A DNA stretch of 63,931 nucleotides, filler included, from Rhabdomonas costata (lineage: Eukaryota): the NCBI GenBank assembly GCA_019059605.1. It is 46 parts of 46 records of this genome, joined end to end, with 100 filler letters (N's around TTAATTAATTAA, not from the genome) between each part and the next. Parts side by side here need not be neighbours in the genome. Positions count along the whole stretch, not along the records: positions 38,978 to 40,268 come from JAHMHO010020437.1; 45 more parts are not named here. The stretch is one strand, 5' to 3'. Below, piece after piece: positions 5,643 through 62,535 of the stretch. The notes beneath the pieces are model-generated. The model saw only the letters and a program-made list of their open reading frames with translations, was not told the origin of the DNA and made no database searches. The position numbers and the translations under genes are program-made. The number at the start of each line of letters is the position of its first letter. Within the stretch, counting starts at the first letter, position 1.

Positions 5643-6770
5643 CCCACGGCGTGACACACCGAGGAGCACTTGTGGTTCGCCAGGAATGCGGAGATCCCTG
5701 CGGACATGGAAAAGTGGTCAGTTGTCTAGGGGCCGAATCTGAAATGCAAGTTCCTTTCCCCCGGGCTTGAAGTGAGCGTGGATGAAGTCTGCCGCAAAAA
5801 TCCTTGCTTCCCTCTAGGGCTACATCAGTTGCTCTCGCCACGCCGAGCTCATCCATCCCAAGCCTTAAACTTCAAACACAACCAAACGATAGCCGTAGGA
5901 CAGCCACAGGGCATGAAATCGACGGCAGGGGATCGTAACAATTTTTTCTTGCGAAATTCTCATCAGCAGTCGTTTTCAAGTATTTTCTGAAACGAATCAC
6001 CCTTGGATGAAAGTCAAAAACTGGTTTCGGAGCATTTGAGTCCTTCCATGCTTTGCAGGAAAAGATCGCACCGAGCGTTTTATTCCGCCCCCAGAAAAGC
6101 TCATTTCCAAGATGACCCACAATAATACCCCAGAGCAGTGAACCCACCACCAAACCCACGGTCTTGAACCCCGCGCAAATGCCCTGCTGTTTGGGGCAGA
6201 AAGCAGCGCACCCGTCATCCCGGTGTCCGTGTAGCCGTGTCTGCCCTGCATGGTGCTGACGACCGCTGGGTCAGTGTAAGTCTCTCCCACACCCTGGATC
6301 TGTGTACACCAAACGACAGACACGCACACACAGTTAAAAAGCTATACGGCAAAAAAAAAAGACACAGCCCAGGCACGAGCTCATCGCGAATAAATAGGAT
6401 GCACTCGAATACGCGGGAAGGTCATCCCAAGCCAAGCCAGTATTCTTAGTGCGTTTTATTTCCCATGTGTGCCCGCCCCATCTTTCACTTGCTCACTTTA
6501 ATCTCGGTTCTCGATCCTCCCGACATCGGGTGCCCCCGATAGGTTGCGGAGGTATATTAACGGGCTGCATTCATACCGCCGACATTGCCCACCCGCACGG
6601 GGACGGGGGGGCGTGAAAAAAGGGACAGCGCAGCGTACGTCCAGAATCATCAGGGAATGCCCGGATTCCTCGTAGGTGAAGTGGGAGAAAGCCGAGGGGG
6701 TGTCCTGACCAGACTCCATCATGCCGAAGATGTTGTTGTGCTTCTGCCAGGTGCCCTGCAGGTACTCCTC
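5643..6770 (-). CDS. Alpha-kinase (eEF2K/myosin heavy chain kinase family), C-terminal fragment (3 exons)
   Basis: Exons ~6770-6639, 6299-6212 and 5697-5643 splice GT-AG in frame to EEYLQGTWQKHNNIFG...AFSHFTYEESGHSLMILD|IQGVGETYTDP...G|ISAFLANHKCSSVC, matching the FSHFT, DIQG, TDP and HxCxxxC motifs. Confidence 0.92.
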
Positions 6771-7022
6771 CAGGGCACCTGGCAGAAGCACAACAACATC
6801 TTCGGCATGATGGAGTCTGGTCAGGACACCCCCTCGGCTTTCTCCCACTTCACCAACAAACNNNNNNNNNNNNNNNNNNNNNNNNNNNNNNNNNNNNNNN
6901 NNNNNTTAATTAATTAANNNNNNNNNNNNNNNNNNNNNNNNNNNNNNNNNNNNNNNNNNNNGTTTTTGTGTGCGAGAAGAAAAAACAAAAAAGAAAGGCA
7001 AAGCGGGAATGACTGCACACAC

Positions 7023-11140: not shown

Positions 11141-11411
11141 AGCGAGACTGCAAAGGAAGAGTGGGGTTTATTCTCCCAAACTTTTCCTTTCTGTGCACAG
11201 TTTTCAGTAAAAGGGAACGGAGGTGTTGGACGCGGTATGTAGGGTGGAGCCTCCTCCCCTCCTCCCTCCTCGCCCACTCGTGGTTTAAAGATTGCGGTTA
11301 AGGAATCGCATCCGCGGGTTTCCCTTTTCCACGTTCGAGCGAGGCTGCAAAGGGAGAGTGGGGTTCATTCTCCCGAACTTTTCCTTTCTGTGCACAGTAT
11401 TCGGTAAAAGG
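11141..11411 (+). repeat. Imperfect ~74-bp direct repeat (11141-11214 and 11338-11411)
   Basis: agcgagactgcaaaggaagagtggggtttattctcccaaacttttcctttctgtgcacag... recurs 197 nt later with a few substitutions. Confidence 0.9.
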
Positions 11412-32445: not shown

Positions 32446-33614
32446 TCTTGTCGAACAGAAATCGGAGTCCTGACATGGTGCTTGGAGTGCTTTCGTTCAG
32501 CACTCCCCTTTGTGCCTTTTTGTCAGGTCCCTCTCAGCGCACCGAAGGGCAAGCCGAAGAGGAGACTGAGCTTTATAGCTCAGCGTTATAATTCTGTTCT
32601 GGTTAAGGAGCACTTGGGAGGAGGCCACCTCCTTCCCAAACGTGGCTTTCCTTTGTTTTTTGTGTGATTTTAGTACTTCTTTGTGATGTAATGTGTGCAA
32701 TTTTGGTTCCCTTCCTTGACGGGGAAAAAGCGCGGAATTGAAAGTCTCTGTACTTCCCCCACCCCAACCCATCACTCCCATCTGCCCGCACACACACATA
32801 CAAACAGACATGCGACCTCGCTGGTCCTCGTCGGCAGCTGGATATACTGTGTGTTATTCCGTGACTTAGTGCCACTGTGTTGTGCTCGAGAACTGACTCG
32901 CAAGCTGCCGCACGCAAACCGTTTTATTCTGTATTCACACTGAGTTGTGTCTGTGGGCGATGTTGAAACCTTTTGCACGGGCTGCATTGAAGGGGGTGGG
33001 AGTGGGGGTCGTTAAACGTTTAACGCTGGCACAAGCATACCTTATCCAACCCCCTTGCTCGAAAACTTAACCAAACCCCGAAGCAACCTTAAACAAACAA
33101 CAAAACGTAAGTTTTGCGGCTTGCCCAATCGATCCGAAGCCCCAAAATATGTAACGCTACCCTCCCCAACCACCAAAAATCGTCCCGCGATAAATGGGAG
33201 GTAGACGGGAATGTCGTGCGAAAATTTTCATCGACTGTGTGGGATTCGGGCAAACGTTGATCAAAATCGTCAAGAAAGACGAATTAACAGAACTTTTACC
33301 AAGCAAAAAAAAANNNNNNNNNNNNNNNNNNNNNNNNNNNNNNNNNNNNNNNNNNNNTTAATTAATTAANNNNNNNNNNNNNNNNNNNNNNNNNNNNNNN
33401 NNNNNNNNNNNNNGTGGGGGTGGTACAGTTATCTTCCGATTCTCGAGTTTCGTCGACTTGAGAAATCCATTTGAAACCGCTAATCGGAAATCTACCCAGC
33501 GCCGCCAGAAACTCGAGAATCGGAAGATAACTGTACCACCTCAATCCAGGTAATCAAACGTACAGTGCATCAGTGAACCAAGCAATTGAATCCAGCTTCG
33601 GATCGTCGGACGCC

Positions 33615-38594: not shown

Positions 38595-38978
38595 GTTTGC
38601 GAGCTCTTGCCTCCGATCATCCTCCCACGCACACGGACACCCACGCACAGACACCGCGTCGGCGCCCTTCTCTCCGCACTTTTGTTTTCTGTGTCGCTTT
38701 CCTGTCATCCGAAATTTACGCTGGTCATCTGACTGGGCAGGATGTGCTTAGTGCTGTGCTCTTTTTGGACGAATGCGCACCCCGTTGCATTTTCAATACC
38801 CCACTGCCGTGCACCCTTCCCAGTCAGATGACCAGCGTAAATTTCGGATGACAGGAAAGCGACACAGAAAACAAACCNNNNNNNNNNNNNNNNNNNNNNN
38901 NNNNNNNNNNNNNNNNNNNNNTTAATTAATTAANNNNNNNNNNNNNNNNNNNNNNNNNNNNNNNNNNNNNNNNNNNNC

Positions 38979-40268
38979 CGATTCTAAAATTTTCTGGTAG
39001 AGAAGCACATTCGTCTTGACAAAATGTTGTTTCTTCTTTAAGCGTGTGAGGAAGCGTGTGACTGACTACGCTTACGTGTTGGTACCTTTGAGTTCTACGT
39101 TCTAAGCGTTGACTTTTCTTGGTGTTTCTAGGCATATCTGTGAGAGTACAGGCTGCATTATCACGTTTTAACACTCATATAGTTGCTCTAGTAGTTGCAT
39201 TTGTTGTTACTCTTCCATTTAGTTCTATTAATTCTACAAATCCACGATAACCTGTGTCCCTGGATCCACAAATCGTGGCGAGCATGCAGAGGCCTTCTCA
39301 TTACTAGTGAGTGGTGAGTGTTGTTTGTCTGGGTGTGTTGTACTTCTGGGTCTTTCACGTGTTGGTGCTAGTTGCTCCTCTGTTTGTTGAATTTATTCAA
39401 TGTGTGGTGAGTTGATAAGTTTGAGCTGTCGTGTGTTGTTGTTGTTGTTGGAATGTAAACTTTGCATTAGTCTTTGTTATCTTCATCTGGTTGTTTGGGT
39501 GTGTTCGTGTGACACATAAAGAGTCCAGTGGGTTATCAGGTGGAGTGTCTGATACTGATTAGTAAGTATATCTCTGAGCAAAACATTTTTTGTACAATAT
39601 GATTTATCTGGTAAGTGCGTCTAATTTTACAATGTAGCGCATAAAAGTTTATGCAGTTTTCAGATTTCTTCCAGGTTGGAGAAAATTGGATCTTTGACTC
39701 CATTTAGGTTATTTTTAACACTGAATACAACATTCTACATTATCGGAGCCACTTTGTGAGGTAGACAAGATAATCCATCCCAGTTGACTGAGGCAATTGA
39801 CAATCTCACTGGATCTAACCAACCTCAGACACCTAACCAATAAAATAGTCGTTAAGAACTTACTATTGCATCGCCGCTTATGAGGATACATAACGCTTAC
39901 GAGATATCATACGCCTAAATTGCCACAAGCTAAACTTCAACACTCTACATATTTGAATGCGTACGACCATACTCTGAGTTCACACTCTTTTTATTCACCA
40001 CAATAGAAATTGCTACAGATGGCTAATACTCTGACTTACCTGTCACGGTTTTAGTTAATTCTGGTGATTAAATACACCACCAAATCTCATAAAAACCCAC
40101 CGGATAGCACGGTAAATTTACGAGCATTATACAGTACTGTATTTGAATCTCTGCATGGGAAAACTCTGTATCAATGACACCACAGATCTTGAAAGGCAAG
40201 GATTTGATTCAAAGTCATTCAATCACGTGACTGTAAACTAGCCTCGTTAAAACTGTTCAAAAAAAACA
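38979..40268 (-). CDS. Putative intronless CDS fragment read with a non-stop genetic code (TGA=Trp, TAR=Glu/Gln), likely a second organism
   Basis: AT-rich contig. One minus frame reads ...MESVEVELVAIEAYDISEALCILISG...KDPIFSNLEEIWKLHKLL...VDLENEENEMEEEQQMQLLEQLYECENV... with TAR=Glu and TGA=Trp. Family unknown. Confidence 0.55.
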
Positions 40269-42525: not shown

Positions 42526-44018
42526 CTGCAACAAAGCAAATGTCCAGACCCCACCACCACCACAAAAAAAATCAACGCTAATCACTACAGATTCCGCTAA
42601 GCAGGCAAGGGCCATTTTCGCATCAAACTACAAAAACGCTTTGGTATGGCCCAACTCACATTAAAAGTGAGAGTTTTAGAAATCCAAAGATAAAAACATG
42701 GGAAGCGGCAATGCAACGAATGGGCAGCGTAAGAAGGGGTCATCTCAGTTCGTTGTTTTCTTCATTTTTCAACCCTTTTGTCGCTATGAAGTTCGTAAAT
42801 GCTCTCATTTATTGGACAGTTCTCACTTTTGAAGTGAAGCGGACAATATAACAATTGCAACGGGGATTTAACTCATCTGAAACCTTCATACTTCCCTTTT
42901 TATCGAAAAAACAGACTTGCTAACAGGTAGAAAAGGGTCGATAAGAATGGCAGGAATCCCTCCCCTTCCAACTCGAACCCTAACCGAATCCGCAGCAGCG
43001 CCGAAATGAGTGAGGTAGGGAAAAGATAGAGCACCACAGCTTGCTCCTGGNNNNNNNNNNNNNNNNNNNNNNNNNNNNNNNNNNNNNNNNNNNNTTAATT
43101 AATTAANNNNNNNNNNNNNNNNNNNNNNNNNNNNNNNNNNNNNNNNNNNNTGTTGTTGGTGGAAGTGGAAAGGTCCACTCAATTTGAAACTGAATGAGCC
43201 ACCCTATTCTTGACAGGCGCTCGCCCTACGGTGTTCACGCTGGTTTACATTCACTCCAAACACGCCACAAAAGTCAAATCAACAGCCAGGACTGACCTTC
43301 AGAGACCTAATTGAGTGCGGATAAATCTCCCGCGAAACGGGAACGCAAATACCTGGGGCACTATCACCGCGATCGCTTCCGTGGAGTTGAGGTTTGGATT
43401 GAGACTCCTCAAAGCCGGGTCTGACCAGTGGGTCACATTTCCTGTTATTGGAAAAAACAAAAAATCGAGACCTTGCCACATCCCAAAGTGCGCACAACAA
43501 CAAGATTTGGGAATAGCACATTAGACGGTCCCCCACCCCGTGACGCAGACCCGAGCGTAGCGATCGCTACCGAGTATACTCATTCCAGAAGTGTGTTGGT
43601 GCCTAGAATTTTAGGTGTTAAGTGTGTCAGAACCTAGAATCGCCCAAGACATCCTGGAAACTTTCCATGGGAAACGTGCATCGCCTCCTAACCCCCTGCA
43701 AAGTCTCTTTTAGACTTCCACGGGACACATACTAAAGCCCACCGCAAAAGTTGCGTAGCGGTCGCCACGCACAGAGTGAGTAACGCCGCTAAGCAAAAGT
43801 GAATAACGGGGGGCGGGGTCTAATGTATTATAGCCACATATTTTTTTGGGGGGTCCCTCCTCCAAAGTTGAGAATCGGGAATTGCGCCTTGTGCTTTGTG
43901 CCCTAGGCATCAGAAAAATGAGGATTTACATCATGCATCATGCGTAAGAGGTGAATGACACAGTTAATGCACAAACGTGCATATATGTGCAAGATTCCAG
44001 TTAGAATGAAATATTCAT

Positions 44019-44050
44019 GAAATAAAATAAATAAAATAAATAAATAATAA
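44019..44050 (+). repeat. (AAATA/AATA)n AT-rich simple repeat
   Basis: aaataaaataaataaaataaataaataataa seen directly within an AT-rich non-coding patch. Confidence 0.8.
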
Positions 44051-44934
44051 TTATAATATTAATAAAAAATTATTATAACAATATTCATTCATATTCACTA
44101 TGAAAAATAAGCATGAAAATTAGCGTATGAATTTTCCCCAAAAAATTGCCCCTTTTTATCCAGACCAGCGCGATAGCCTGGAAAATTAACCACTTTAACC
44201 ACTCAGCACACCCGCCGACGTGTACATTTTTACGTTGGTGTGGTCTTGTGTGGTCTGCACCGTCCTATTGCCCTTAAATCGAGTAAATTTCCTGGTTGAG
44301 TCAAACCTATTGTTATTTATGCCCTCTTTGCTTGTTTTGAGGGGCATTGTATGCACGATAGCATCGAAAACGTGCAATTTCATTTGACCCAATACTAATA
44401 CCAGGCCGCATAATTAAAGTCGCAATATTCCACCACCACACNNNNNNNNNNNNNNNNNNNNNNNNNNNNNNNNNNNNNNNNNNNNTTAATTAATTAANNN
44501 NNNNNNNNNNNNNNNNNNNNNNNNNNNNNNNNNNNNNNNNNTCTGACATTCCGGAAAGACCAGCCAGAAAACAGAACATTCTGGCATTTTTGTGCAGTTT
44601 GGAAATAGGAGGTTGGCCGAATCTCAAACTGAATATGTAAGGCGAAACAGACTGCCTTGGCGTTGGGCTTGTAAGTTTGGGAAGTACAGCGGAAAACGAC
44701 GCACGATATACTCACCTTCATTTTTGCTGCCTAATGAATTTGCCTGTGGACATGGCATATTGTTATTTTTTATCACCAAACTGTGTGGCATCACGACGGT
44801 ACTCCTGCTGCGATTTGGTGTCTGGCAAGGTATAGCCACAATTTAGCAAGAGAAACCAAGCAAAAAAGCTAAATTTGCCTTTTTAATTTCAAGCAAAGGG
44901 CAGCTGAACACCTCTATTGGACCTTCTTTTGCAG

Positions 44935-46973: not shown

Positions 46974-47072
46974 TTTTTTGGCGCGTTCAAGGTGCTGCTG
47001 TTCGTGCTGGACAACACGGCTGGCATTGGGGCATTGTGGTGAGAGTGTGCGCCGTGCCCATCCACACACACA
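46974..47072 (+). repeat. Dispersed ~95-bp repeat ending in (CA)n, copy 1
   Basis: ttttggcgcgttcaaggtgctgctgttcgtgctggac...ggtgagagtgtgcgccgtgcccatccacacaca matches the reverse complement of 51313-51405. Confidence 0.9.
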
Positions 47073-48240
47073 AACCCCTCAAAACACATACCATCCGGGC
47101 AACAGCCAGCACACACCTTGTCCCTGGCAGGTCAGAGAGATTTGCGGGTCGGGCATCCTCTCGTAAAGAGTCTTGTCTACATTTCCTGGTTTAAACCAGC
47201 CACAAAACCGCAAATGCACGGTATNNNNNNNNNNNNNNNNNNNNNNNNNNNNNNNNNNNNNNNNNNNNTTAATTAATTAANNNNNNNNNNNNNNNNNNNN
47301 NNNNNNNNNNNNNNNNNNNNNNNNCTGACCAAGCAAACCCCCGCGACACCGCCTGTGGCTGGGGCCGAGAGTCCTGCGGTGCAATCCGTGCCGTCTCCGG
47401 CGCCCTTTCTGGGCAAGCCAGAGCGTACTGTACTTGCTGTCTAGTCCACGTTATCCGTTTCAAAGCTCATGGAGGGCGGCTGGGGGGTTCCTTTTTGCAG
47501 CTGTTTGCAATTGTTCACCTGATGTCTGAGGGTGAAGGTGTGTTGCGACTAGCTAGAGTATTTATTGCTGAACTGGGCCCTCCCAGCGGAGCACCTAATG
47601 TCAGGCGATGTCCCAGTACGTGTGCGCATTCGAATGCATGTCCCCGTGCGTGTATGCTCCCTTTTGGTGTATGCAGGACTCCCTGCCACCCCCCCCTCCC
47701 CTGAGAGTCCGGATTGCGGGGGGGGGGGGGATTGAAGCAATGGATTTTTCTCGAGATTCTGTGGGTTTTGGTTAGATAGGTTCTCGCAAAGGAGGAGTGA
47801 ATCCCCCCCCCTTGCCCTGCTCAGACCCCCTGAGGTTTATAAATTCTATAGGAATATAAATTCTTAACATGGGTGATTGGGTGATTGTGGTTCCTTAATG
47901 AGTGCTTTCTCAACCTCTGAGCCTTTTGAAAACTTGTTCCTGTTCGGTTGTGTTTTTTCGTTGCCGGGCTTTTTTACAGCTTCTGTGTTGTGAGTTTTCG
48001 TCCCACTTGATTTTGTATCAGATGGAACCTGAAAGCCAGGTGTGCGGTTTTTCCGTCCGTTGGAAGATGTATACTTCTGTTGTGGCATCGCCGTTCTGCG
48101 TTATCAGCCATGCGTGACTTCCACGGGAAGTTCGGGGTGCCCTCACCCACTAAGGGCAAATTGGAGAGGCGGACAAAGAGGAACAACAAAAGAACCATAA
48201 ACCCGACGCGGCCCCTGACCACCATTTTGCGTTTTTTCAG

Positions 48241-51274: not shown

Positions 51275-51276
<2 letters not shown>

Positions 51277-51325
<49 letters not shown>

Positions 51326-51405
51326 ATGGGCACGGCGCACACTCTCACCCCAATGCCCGTCGTGTCGTCCAGCACGAACAGCAGCACCGTGAACGCGCCA
51401 AAAAA
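51277..51405 (-). repeat. Dispersed ~95-bp repeat copy 2 with a long (GT)n tail
   Basis: Reverse-complement match to 46974-47072; (GT) tract at about 51277-51324. Confidence 0.9.
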
Positions 51406-52626: not shown

Positions 52627-53289
52627 GTCGGTGATGCCTCCTCCGCTGTGTCGCAGTCAGTCCACCTGTCACATTGCACCGCACATATGTGAGGGTGTGT
52701 ATCACGCATAGACTCTCCGGAACCAATAATTGACAAAACTCGAAATAAAAAGGGGCTTAAAATGGACAATAATTCTGTATCTCGTTACTCCCAACCCCCN
52801 NNNNNNNNNNNNNNNNNNNNNNNNNNNNNNNNNNNNNNNNNNNTTAATTAATTAANNNNNNNNNNNNNNNNNNNNNNNNNNNNNNNNNNNNNNNNNNNNT
52901 TGTGTGTTTGGGGTTTGTTGTGCTTCTTTTCGTTCCATCGTACCTTGCAGCGTTGGTTGGTTGCTTTGTTGTCGGTACATTATTGTCAACTTTACGTGAA
53001 AACGATGTAAAACACGACGGGTGTTGCAGCGGGGTAGTGCTTGTCGGGGATTTAGGGGAAGTATATGTTTCTTTATACAGACTCGGGATCTGGTTTAGGG
53101 GAACCTACTTACTCATGATGCACTGACAAAATCCGGTGTTTTCAATGGATTTCTTGCACTCACCCCCCTAGTCGCGATTCTGATAAGGCATATGCTGCAA
53201 AACTATGCTGGCGCGCCCGCAGAGTTACCGCCTGGCTTCTGAACGAGATTGCAACAAAAGAGCACACCGACGTCGCCTGCTCCACGGAT

Positions 53290-53682
53290 CCGAAACAGTT
53301 TTCGGAGGCTGCGGTTGCGACGGATGTGGTGAGCGTGAAGCACGTGGAGACCAGCACCTCGGCACGACCCACAACCGAATCATCCTCCACGAATACGGAA
53401 GTGGCGATTCCGAAAGAGTTTTCGGAGGCTGCGGTTGCGACGGATGTGGTGAGCGTGAAGCACGAGGAGACCAGCACCCCGGCACGACCCGCAACCGAGT
53501 CGTCCTTCACGAATACGGAAGTGGTGATTCCGAAAGAGTTTTCAGAGGCTGCGATTGCGACGGATGTGGTGAGCGTGAAGCATAAAACGACGAGCACGCC
53601 CGCTCGGGCGTGCATCGCCTCCAGTACTAATACCGAGGCTGAGGCAGTGAAGGAGGTTTCGGAGGCTGCGGTTGCGACGGAT
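53290..53682 (+). repeat. Coding 120-bp tandem repeat (~3.3 units of 40 aa)
   Basis: PKEFSEAAVATDVVSVKHxETSTxARPxTESSxTNTEVxI repeats at 53290, 53410 and 53530, with a partial copy near 53650; frame preserved. Confidence 0.92.
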
Positions 53683-57340: not shown

Positions 57341-58265
57341 GCCTACTGGCGGGGCTTAACTGTGATCCTGTCCGGCTCGGACGTCCCCGGAGAGGGCGAG
57401 CACAAGATCATGGAGTTCATCCGCCAGCAGAGGCTGCACCCAGCCTATCGTGCCGACACCTCCCACTGCCTATGTGGGCTGGACGCCGACCTGATTTTGC
57501 TGGTGCGTCCTCCCCCTCCCTCGCTTTCAAGGATGTGTTTGGCTTCTGGCCGTACCGTGTCGACGGGCTTCAAGAGGGGTTTCGGATTGGCTTCGACTAT
57601 TGCGGCTTCTGTGGCTGGAACGTGAGTGCTTTCCCCTCAAATGAAACAGGCACTGGCAACACATGAGCCTCGGTTTACGATTATTCGGGACCACGTGGAG
57701 CTGGAGGCCGGGGCCTCACCTGCCAAGCACCTCCATCCTGCTTTCGACCTTCTGTGCATAGGTGTTGCATCCTCCACCTTCTTACAAGTATTATATTTTT
57801 TCTGGGGGGGGGGGACGGGGTGCGTTTCTGTTGAAACTGCCGCGGACGCGCTACCGGCATCCACGATCGTGCTTACGCAAGAAAGATTCTCAACGAAATG
57901 CGAGCAACCTCTTTATGCGATGGAAGTGTCTTGGTTTCTCTATCCCATTGCATCCATGGAGCGCACGAATTGAGGGTACGCTACCCTTTTCTGTGCTTTG
58001 GAGCTTGTTGTGCATGTGGCCTTACCCCTTTCCCTCTCTTTCCAATAGGAGCTCTTCGGGAGTGCCTTGGGGAGGAGTTCTCTGCGCTGCGGGGCGCTGG
58101 CCTTCCGTTCGGGTACTCTCTGGAGCGCGTGGTGGACGACTTTGTGTTCCTGTGCTGCTTCGTGGGCAACGACTTCCTTCCCCACCTGCCCTCCCTGGAT
58201 ATTCGCGAGGGGGCCATGGAGATGTTGCTGGGATGCTACCTGAAGATCCTTCCTACGCTGCAAGG
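57341..58265 (+). CDS. XRN-family 5'-3' exoribonuclease fragment (3 exons)
   Basis: Exons 57341-57502, 57650-57761 and 58049-58265: [14 protein letters not shown]...[20 protein letters not shown]...[19 protein letters not shown]. Confidence 0.96.
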
Positions 58266-58803
58266 GTATGTGCCCCCCCCCCTCAGCGAATATCCAGGGA
58301 GGGCAGGTGGGGAAGGAAGTCGTTGCCCACGAAGCAGCACAGGAACACAAAGTCGTCCAACACCACNNNNNNNNNNNNNNNNNNNNNNNNNNNNNNNNNN
58401 NNNNNNNNNNTTAATTAATTAANNNNNNNNNNNNNNNNNNNNNNNNNNNNNNNNNNNNNNNNNNNNGGGTTTGGTGGTGCAAAAAAGAAACGAGGTTCTA
58501 CCGCTGGGATGCGGTGGTCCTGTGGGGAGCTGGCAATGGTTAGGTGCGGAACTGTTTGTGATTTCGTTCGTTTCAAGCAGTTGCCTGCAGCGCGATATGG
58601 AGCTGACGCGGGTGCATGGACGAAGTGCTAAGATGAAACTGAAAACTTCAGGGCTTTAGGTAACAGTTCTGCCTTTCCGCTGAAGCCGCATGCCGCAGTC
58701 CCAAGCAGACAACAAACGATGTCATTTTGGGCCTGTGCCCTCTTTCTGGCAGTCCATTGCTTTATCTTGTTCTTCCGTGCTCATGCCCATTTTTCTTTTG
58801 CAA

Positions 58804-61744: not shown

Positions 61745-62535
61745 CTTGCAGCACTCACTCTGTGTGCAGTTCAAGACTGAGGCGCAGGTGGACCCGGTGA
61801 GGTCAGACTTCAGCACAAGGCCCGATCGGCATGTTACCACTGGAGAGTCGGAGCAGGTCCGTGCTAAAAGGAATAACGGGAAACCCGCCCGAGCTACTTG
61901 CTATTTGCACACGGGAAAGCATCAGACACCTGGGTGAGGCACCGTTAGAGGGCCGATACGTAATAATGGAGAGCAGCGCTCGCTCCTTGGTGGACCCCAC
62001 ACCCTACAGTGGCATACATTTGAAAATATTTGCCAGACAGAAACCATCAAGGCAAAGACTCATCAAATAACCAGAAGGTTCGCAGGACTCACAGCCGTTC
62101 GTAAGCATTGCCCGGTGGTTTGTGAAATGGAAAAGCCACGAACACCGGCAGCGGAACGGCACTTGAGTGGAAGTCAGAGTGAGTCAGAGTGTCAGAGTGT
62201 GTGAGCCAGAGAAATGCACAAGCAACAAAAAGGTGCGTGAGAATCTAGAGCAGAGAACGTAGTGAACGGGACGCACTCGACCTTTACGCGACCTTTGGCA
62301 CGTGCACGAAGACAAGGATGCTAGCAGAGGGCAGGGAGGAGACTGCGCCGTGACAGAAAAACAAAGTGCAGGCACAAAATGCAGGGATCCATACGGCAGA
62401 GTTCCGTGTTACACGACGAGGTGAGGACTTCGTTGGCGGAGTAGTTGCACTGCGCCCCGCCGTTGGCTTCAGGAGTAAGCACGAAGAAGGTCTGTGATTG
62501 CACCCCAGAGCCGCAGCTCTGGGGTGCAATCACAA
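61745..62535 (-). CDS. Thrombospondin type-1/spondin-like and Cys-rich surface protein fragment
   Basis: Exon to 62395: SCGSGVQSQTFFVLTPEANGGAQC...SCNTELC (TSP1). A later exon reads TCSDSPVVTCRSG...CASVLNCTQSECC. Middle exons are uncertain. Confidence 0.7.

Follow-up and report, generated by a model that had tools for sequence, protein, structure and literature searches.

The list of nuclear genetic codes in which all three stop codons can be read as amino acids is very short and comprises those of Blastocrithidia, of Condylostoma along with other karyorelict ciliates, and of a single Amoebophrya. In Blastocrithidia, the nuclear code (NCBI table 31) assigns UAA and UAG to Glu and UGA to Trp, and UAA is a stop as well. 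In the sections of the Blastocrithidia report drawn on here (PMC12153298), ORFs have a GC content of 38.7-46.4% and intergenic sequence one of 23-26%, coding sequence shows a third-position GC bias, and in-frame UAA, UAG and UGA account for 2.06-2.28%, 1.38-1.66% and 0.72-0.85% of codons, respectively. The recoding is established there from stops at conserved Glu and Trp positions of homologues, from dedicated tRNAs and from an altered eRF1. For Condylostoma, Parduczia, other karyorelict ciliates and Amoebophrya sp. ex Karlodinium, the relevant parts of two further reports describe codes in which all three stops can be sense, and these ambiguous stop/sense codes were inferred from BLASTx and transcript evidence (10.1101/2022.04.12.488043; PMC6394959).

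We analysed a 63,931-base stretch of the Rhabdomonas costata assembly (the window), in which N/TTAATTAATTAA spacers link 46 contigs, each 1286-1302 nt long. A sequence-only reading had proposed that one of these, contig 29, is written in a code without stops and had placed it at 38979..40268; the end of the contig is right and the start is one base late, the contig occupying 38978..40268 (1291 nt). It is AT-rich, as that reading had it, with a uniformly low GC content of 38.6%. The minus frame from 40268, which had been singled out as the recoded one, contains 11 TAA, 10 TAG and 6 TGA codons in 430, so that the hand counts of about 21 TAR and about 6 TGA were exact, and all three of the codon strings quoted from it are present. 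The first, DL-stop-N-stop-stop-N-stop-MEE-stop-QQMQLLEQ, has TAR codons at 39236-39209 and, from its Leu onwards, forms a cluster of TAR, Glu and Gln codons (39183..39239, minus strand) to which five of the 21 TAR codons in the frame belong. The second, NM-stop-SVEV-stop-LVAI-stop-A, has TAR codons at 39947-39917; from its Met to its Ala (39912..39950, minus strand) these are three TAG codons, at 39947, 39932 and 39917. The third, IFSNLEEI-stop-KLHKLL, has a TGA at 39662 (39660..39662, minus strand), a lone anecdotal position.

Two properties of contig 29 recall Blastocrithidia. Its GC content is at the bottom of the ORF range, and not in the intergenic range, given in the cited sections of PMC12153298. 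Stops make up 6.3% of codons in the minus frame from 40268 (TAA 2.6%, TAG 2.3%, TGA 1.4%), compared with about 4.2-4.8% when the frequencies from the same sections are summed. Because this stop frequency, although of the same order as in Blastocrithidia and only about 1.4 times its values, is also the frequency expected by chance, stop density and GC together fail to separate a recoded reading from a chance one. Unlike Blastocrithidia, contig 29 has no homologue, no tRNA in the window and no contrast between frames, and its stop density is only at chance level. Unlike the karyorelict ciliates and Amoebophrya, its proposed recoding is accompanied by no BLASTx-type or transcript evidence.

The stop total had been judged close to random expectation, and shuffling bears this out: dinucleotide-preserving shuffles of contig 29 gave 17.5 ± 3.7 TAR and 9.6 ± 2.8 TGA codons per frame, compared with the 27 stops observed. 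The six frames contain 25, 34, 22, 27, 29 and 19 stops per ~430 codons, and stop-phase contrast is absent from both the minus strand (27/29/19, p = 0.33) and the plus strand (25/34/22, p = 0.24). In six main-genome ORFs used as a control, the reading frame was free of stops and each of the other phases contained 3-14. The minus frame from 40268 is not set apart by stop density or by phase. Standard ORFs are almost absent, as the sequence-only reading had also observed: none of the six frames has a stop-free run of at least 100 codons, and the longest run within the contig is 65 codons (82 aa if spacer N's are counted), compared with a longest open run per frame of 58.9 ± 18 under dinucleotide shuffling.

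The clustering of TAR codons among GAA, GAG and CAA codons had been offered as the signal that remains when stop number is uninformative. Counting GAA, GAG, CAA and CAG as Glu/Gln codons, we found 10 among the 67 distinct codons that lie within two codons of a TAR in the minus frame from 40268, compared with 34 of 342 elsewhere in the frame (Fisher one-sided p = 0.16), an enrichment that falls short of significance. Shuffling gave lower values, with the excess reached in 4.8% of frames under dinucleotide shuffling (p = 0.048) and in 1.75% under shuffling of 30-nt blocks (p = 0.018), p values that are uncorrected for the picking of one frame out of six. The excess comes largely from a single 30-nt cluster (39209-39236), where most of the Glu/Gln codons that adjoin a TAR are found alongside five of the 21 TAR codons. 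The minus strand is rich in A here and in the low-complexity tract beside it, with 36-47% A per 100 nt from about 39070 to 39570 and 39-40% in the two 100-nt bins that begin at 39268 and 39168, at the TAR cluster itself. A locally A-rich minus strand raises TAA, GAA and CAA together and so gives a Glu/Gln-looking TAR context; our reading is that composition produces the context, and the clustering is not a significant signal of recoding. Contig 29 also contains a G+T-rich low-complexity tract (39290..39530, plus strand; A+C-rich on the minus strand), within which (TGT)5.7 spans 39434-39450 and 18 nt recur as an imperfect direct repeat (39322-39339 and 39488-39505), and the minus-frame translation of this tract consists of polar, protein-like strings.

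Codon periodicity in contig 29 is weak and lies within the range of the non-coding contigs of the window. The base-by-phase chi-square is 13.4 (p = 0.037, uncorrected), compared with 22.5-50.9 for the six main-genome contigs whose ORFs span 256-362 codons and 1.7-18.2 for the remaining main-genome contigs. The weak periodicity does fall in the phase of the sequence-only reading, with a GC1 of 0.433 and a larger G1 than in either of the other minus frames. This G1, the share of G at the first codon position, is 0.219, as compared to 0.29-0.37 in the six main-genome ORFs. The minus frame from 40268 did not exhibit the combination of periodicity and contrast with the other frames that is expected of a coding frame.

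Homology searches that allowed for recoding, as the sequence-only reading had proposed, returned no homologue of contig 29. None of its six NCBI table 31 translations had a Pfam match at E ≤ 1, and a phmmer search of 1,835,955,588 representative proteins with the minus frame from 40268 gave no match at E ≤ 0.001. With the fewest-stop frame, a word-index protein search yielded 950 word-sharing candidates, none of which was confirmed. Pattern scans with six peptides of the recoded minus frame from 40268 matched metagenome contigs 94 times and viral contigs 6 times, again with no match confirmed; only two of the peptides (FYEIWWCI and DKSYCTKN) were judged free of recoded residues, and a pattern that holds a recoded residue cannot match contig 29's own DNA. 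For minus frame 2 of 3 and for two of the plus frames, the comparison was with Pfam only. There being no homologue of contig 29 to align, no stops were found at conserved Glu, Gln or Trp columns. Replacing Glu with Gln at 21 of the 430 positions would not be expected to rescue a search that is otherwise matchless. In contig 10, when stops were read through, none of the six frames exceeded the Pfam cut-off, the lone weak match (E = 0.068) scoring 13.7 bits where 24.5 is required, and none of 716 candidates for its most open frame was confirmed. There are no tRNA genes in the whole 64-kb window, and Rfam gave nothing at gathering thresholds over the window and nothing at E ≤ 1 in contig 29.

Taken with the chance-level stops, the missing phase contrast and the weak periodicity, the lack of a homologue leads us away from a non-stop code and to the view that contig 29 is very probably non-coding DNA with no recoded gene. 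It could be intergenic sequence, an intron or a decayed repeat, for example, and its in-frame TAA, TAG and TGA would then be what 39% GC yields in any frame. The DNA appears to be without function.

The bulk of the window is a standard-code eukaryote. The main genome has a GC content of ~52%, and 43 of the contigs fall between 0.49 and 0.56; the others are contig 29 (0.386), contig 10 (12533-13824, 0.389) and contig 32 (43151-44441, 0.44). Four of 18 ORFs scanned carry bromodomain, NYN, chagasin-type inhibitor and NUDIX_4 fragments in open frames of the main genome. A 318-codon ORF of contig 4 (4189-5142, minus strand) shows 99% identity to eukprot:RCo040767, a protein of 544 residues with a WW domain. 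By tblastn, residues 55-344 of this protein align to contig 4 and residues 1-54 are absent from it, which suggests an intron or a contig break. Cluster look-ups for main-genome proteins returned "eukaryote, PPR-like" and bacterial chagasin clusters, which say little about its taxon. Contig 39 has the strongest codon periodicity in the window; its 264-codon ORF has no Pfam match and contains ~120-nt tandem repeats of 83% identity (53289-53682), and probably encodes a repeat protein.

Several kinds of repeat occur in the window. Self-complementary palindromes of 42-243 nt (77-96% identity) lie at the ends or starts of several main-genome contigs, at 6672-6857, 38681-38875, 58129-58363 and 62493-62534 and also at 33419-33540, and one of them directly precedes the spacer before contig 29. 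They look like either a fold-back artefact of assembly or amplification or a real foldback element. The main-genome contigs 6, 20, 27, 37 and 41 match one another over short dinucleotide-repeat tracts (e.g. 51275-51325), and the tract inspected among them is (GT)n. A 102-nt element is present with 87% identity and in opposite orientation at 46974-47075 (contig 34) and 51312-51405 (contig 37), possibly as a dispersed repeat of the main genome, and a 74-nt direct repeat of 92% identity (11141-11214 and 11338-11411) lies at the start of contig 9. Contig 32 has a very AT-rich core (43851-44250, 31% GC) and a dinucleotide signature unlike that of the main genome and unlike that of contigs 10 and 29; with stops read through, it gave no family match above the cut-off.

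Contig 29 had been assigned to the same source as contig 10, and here composition supports the claim. The two contigs are mutual nearest neighbours in GC-normalised dinucleotide distance (0.064), whereas contig 29 lies at a mean of 0.176 and a minimum of 0.116 from the main contigs, which are 0.095 ± 0.033 from one another. The comparison of tetranucleotide profiles that had been suggested gave a correlation of 0.76 between contigs 29 and 10, compared with 0.04 between contig 29 and the main contigs. On AA/TT, AC/GT, CC/GG and TA, contig 29 is 2.5-3.7 sd from the main contigs, values that are noisy, as are all composition tests on contig 29, which rest on 1.3 kb. Low GC extends over essentially every 300-nt window of contigs 29 and 10, as compared to 9 of 442 such windows in other contigs that round to ≤0.40. 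When five low-GC stretches from the main genome are pooled (1.6 kb, 40% GC), AA/TT stands at 1.32, AC/GT at 0.95, CC/GG at 1.04 and TA at 0.61, and the corresponding values for contigs 29 and 10 are 1.03-1.08, 1.19-1.25, 0.80-0.82 and 0.73-0.80. Since the low-GC stretches of the main genome keep the main signature, the difference is not a simple effect of GC, and contig 29 has a signature that is distinct from the bulk and that GC alone is insufficient to explain, as is looked for in a foreign contig.

We therefore find it moderately likely, from composition, that contig 29 has a separate source, a second and AT-richer eukaryote that was co-assembled with the first. That source of contigs 29 and 10 might be a contaminant, a prey or a partner organism, for example. 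As with foreign contigs in other fragmented eukaryote assemblies, contig 29 is a compositional outlier over its full length and has its signature in common with one other contig. A taxonomic hit or a deviating read depth is what usually gives foreign contigs away; contig 29 is set apart here by its composition. Contigs 29 and 10 have no DNA or translated similarity to each other, and neither has sequence in common with any further contig of the window, which weakens the case for a second source. An exact 24-mer (39780-39803) had no match in metagenome contigs and none in prokaryote genome contigs; a single word is a weak probe, and since the DNA searches covered JGI metagenomes, prokaryote genomes and viral contigs but no eukaryote genome collection, this absence says little. 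CpG depletion was considered as a mark of a foreign methylated genome and rejected, the observed/expected ratio of contig 29 (0.67; contig 10, 0.63) lying inside the main range of 0.59-0.97.

The alternative that survives best is that contig 29 belongs to an AT-rich non-coding compartment of the main genome, whether repeat-derived, pericentromeric or subtelomeric. We consider it unlikely, though deserving of real weight. Local low-GC stretches do exist in the main genome, as the nine windows show, the CpG ratio of contig 29 is a main-genome value, and the Pfam, phmmer and word-index searches found no foreign homologue. Contig 29, however, is low in GC from end to end, its dinucleotide signature departs from the main contigs by the margin given above, and the low-GC stretches known from the main genome retain the signature that it lacks. 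Nor does it share a repeat with any other contig of the window. Over-representation of CA/TG does not fit the pattern expected of fungal repeat-induced point mutation. With CA/TG at 1.31 the dinucleotide pattern of contig 29 is of this over-represented kind, and repeat-induced point mutation was rejected for it. Between such a compartment and a second genome, our preference is for the latter.

A second alternative keeps the foreign organism and gives it a standard code: contig 29 would be mostly intron or flank of an intron-rich gene, with at least one short exon. Open runs of 52-65 codons, for example at 39715-39906 and 39188-39367 on the minus strand, could accommodate such exons, and the strand asymmetry of the contig (442 T and 351 A on the plus strand) is compatible with a transcribed region. 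The open runs are no longer than those in shuffled sequence, however, the six read-through frames gave no Pfam match at E ≤ 1, and nothing was found when two frames were compared with large protein sets. We regard this reading as improbable.

Recoding itself fares less well. It would make contig 29 the coding DNA of a co-assembled organism in which TAA and TAG are Glu (or Gln) and TGA is Trp, with a lineage-specific protein in the minus frame from 40268. The quoted codon contexts exist, the weak periodicity falls in the right phase at its uncorrected p of 0.037, and the uncorrected shuffles of TAR context reach p = 0.018-0.048. GC and in-frame stop frequency are near the Blastocrithidia coding values given in the cited sections of PMC12153298, a second source seems to supply contigs 29 and 10, and an orphan gene would likewise lack homologues. 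Against this, the stops in the frame are the chance number and no fewer than in other frames, the periodicity is inside the range of the non-coding contigs, and the Fisher test of TAR context gave p = 0.16. Matches were absent from Pfam in six frames, from 1.84 billion proteins in the frame of the sequence-only reading, and from metagenome and viral contigs; contig 10, with none of six Pfam frames above the cut-off and none of 716 candidates confirmed, is matchless too, and the window holds no tRNA. Together these make recoding very unlikely.

An organellar or extrachromosomal origin, for instance from a non-coding part of a mitochondrial genome or from circles of the kinetoplast type, is equally hard to credit: low GC and strand asymmetry would suit it, but reading TGA as Trp brought up no mitochondrial protein family in Pfam, there is no rRNA and no tRNA, and contig 29 has no internal conserved blocks or repeats. 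The idea of a kinetoplast minicircle was rejected on the last of these grounds and on the absence from contig 29 of the conserved minicircle 12-mer, whose one single-mismatch match in the window lies outside contig 29 and is at chance level. Least probable of all is that contigs 29 and 10 come from an unsampled AT-richer eukaryote that lives alongside the main organism, in which all three stops are sense and contig 29 encodes a lineage-specific protein whose relatives escape detection.

We return to non-coding DNA as the reading of contig 29. A new lineage with three sense stops, if true, would mean that a stop-less nuclear code had arisen independently once more, and the evidence here does not support adding one to the short list. 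For screening, the lesson is that any frame at 39% GC carries ~6% stops and that A-rich patches set TAA beside GAA and CAA, so that hand-picked contexts can mimic recoding. Recoding can be told from such mimicry by stop-phase contrast, by periodicity and by homology, and for contig 29 each of these tests came out negative. For curators of the assembly, the useful flag is that about 2 of these 46 contigs are probably from another source.
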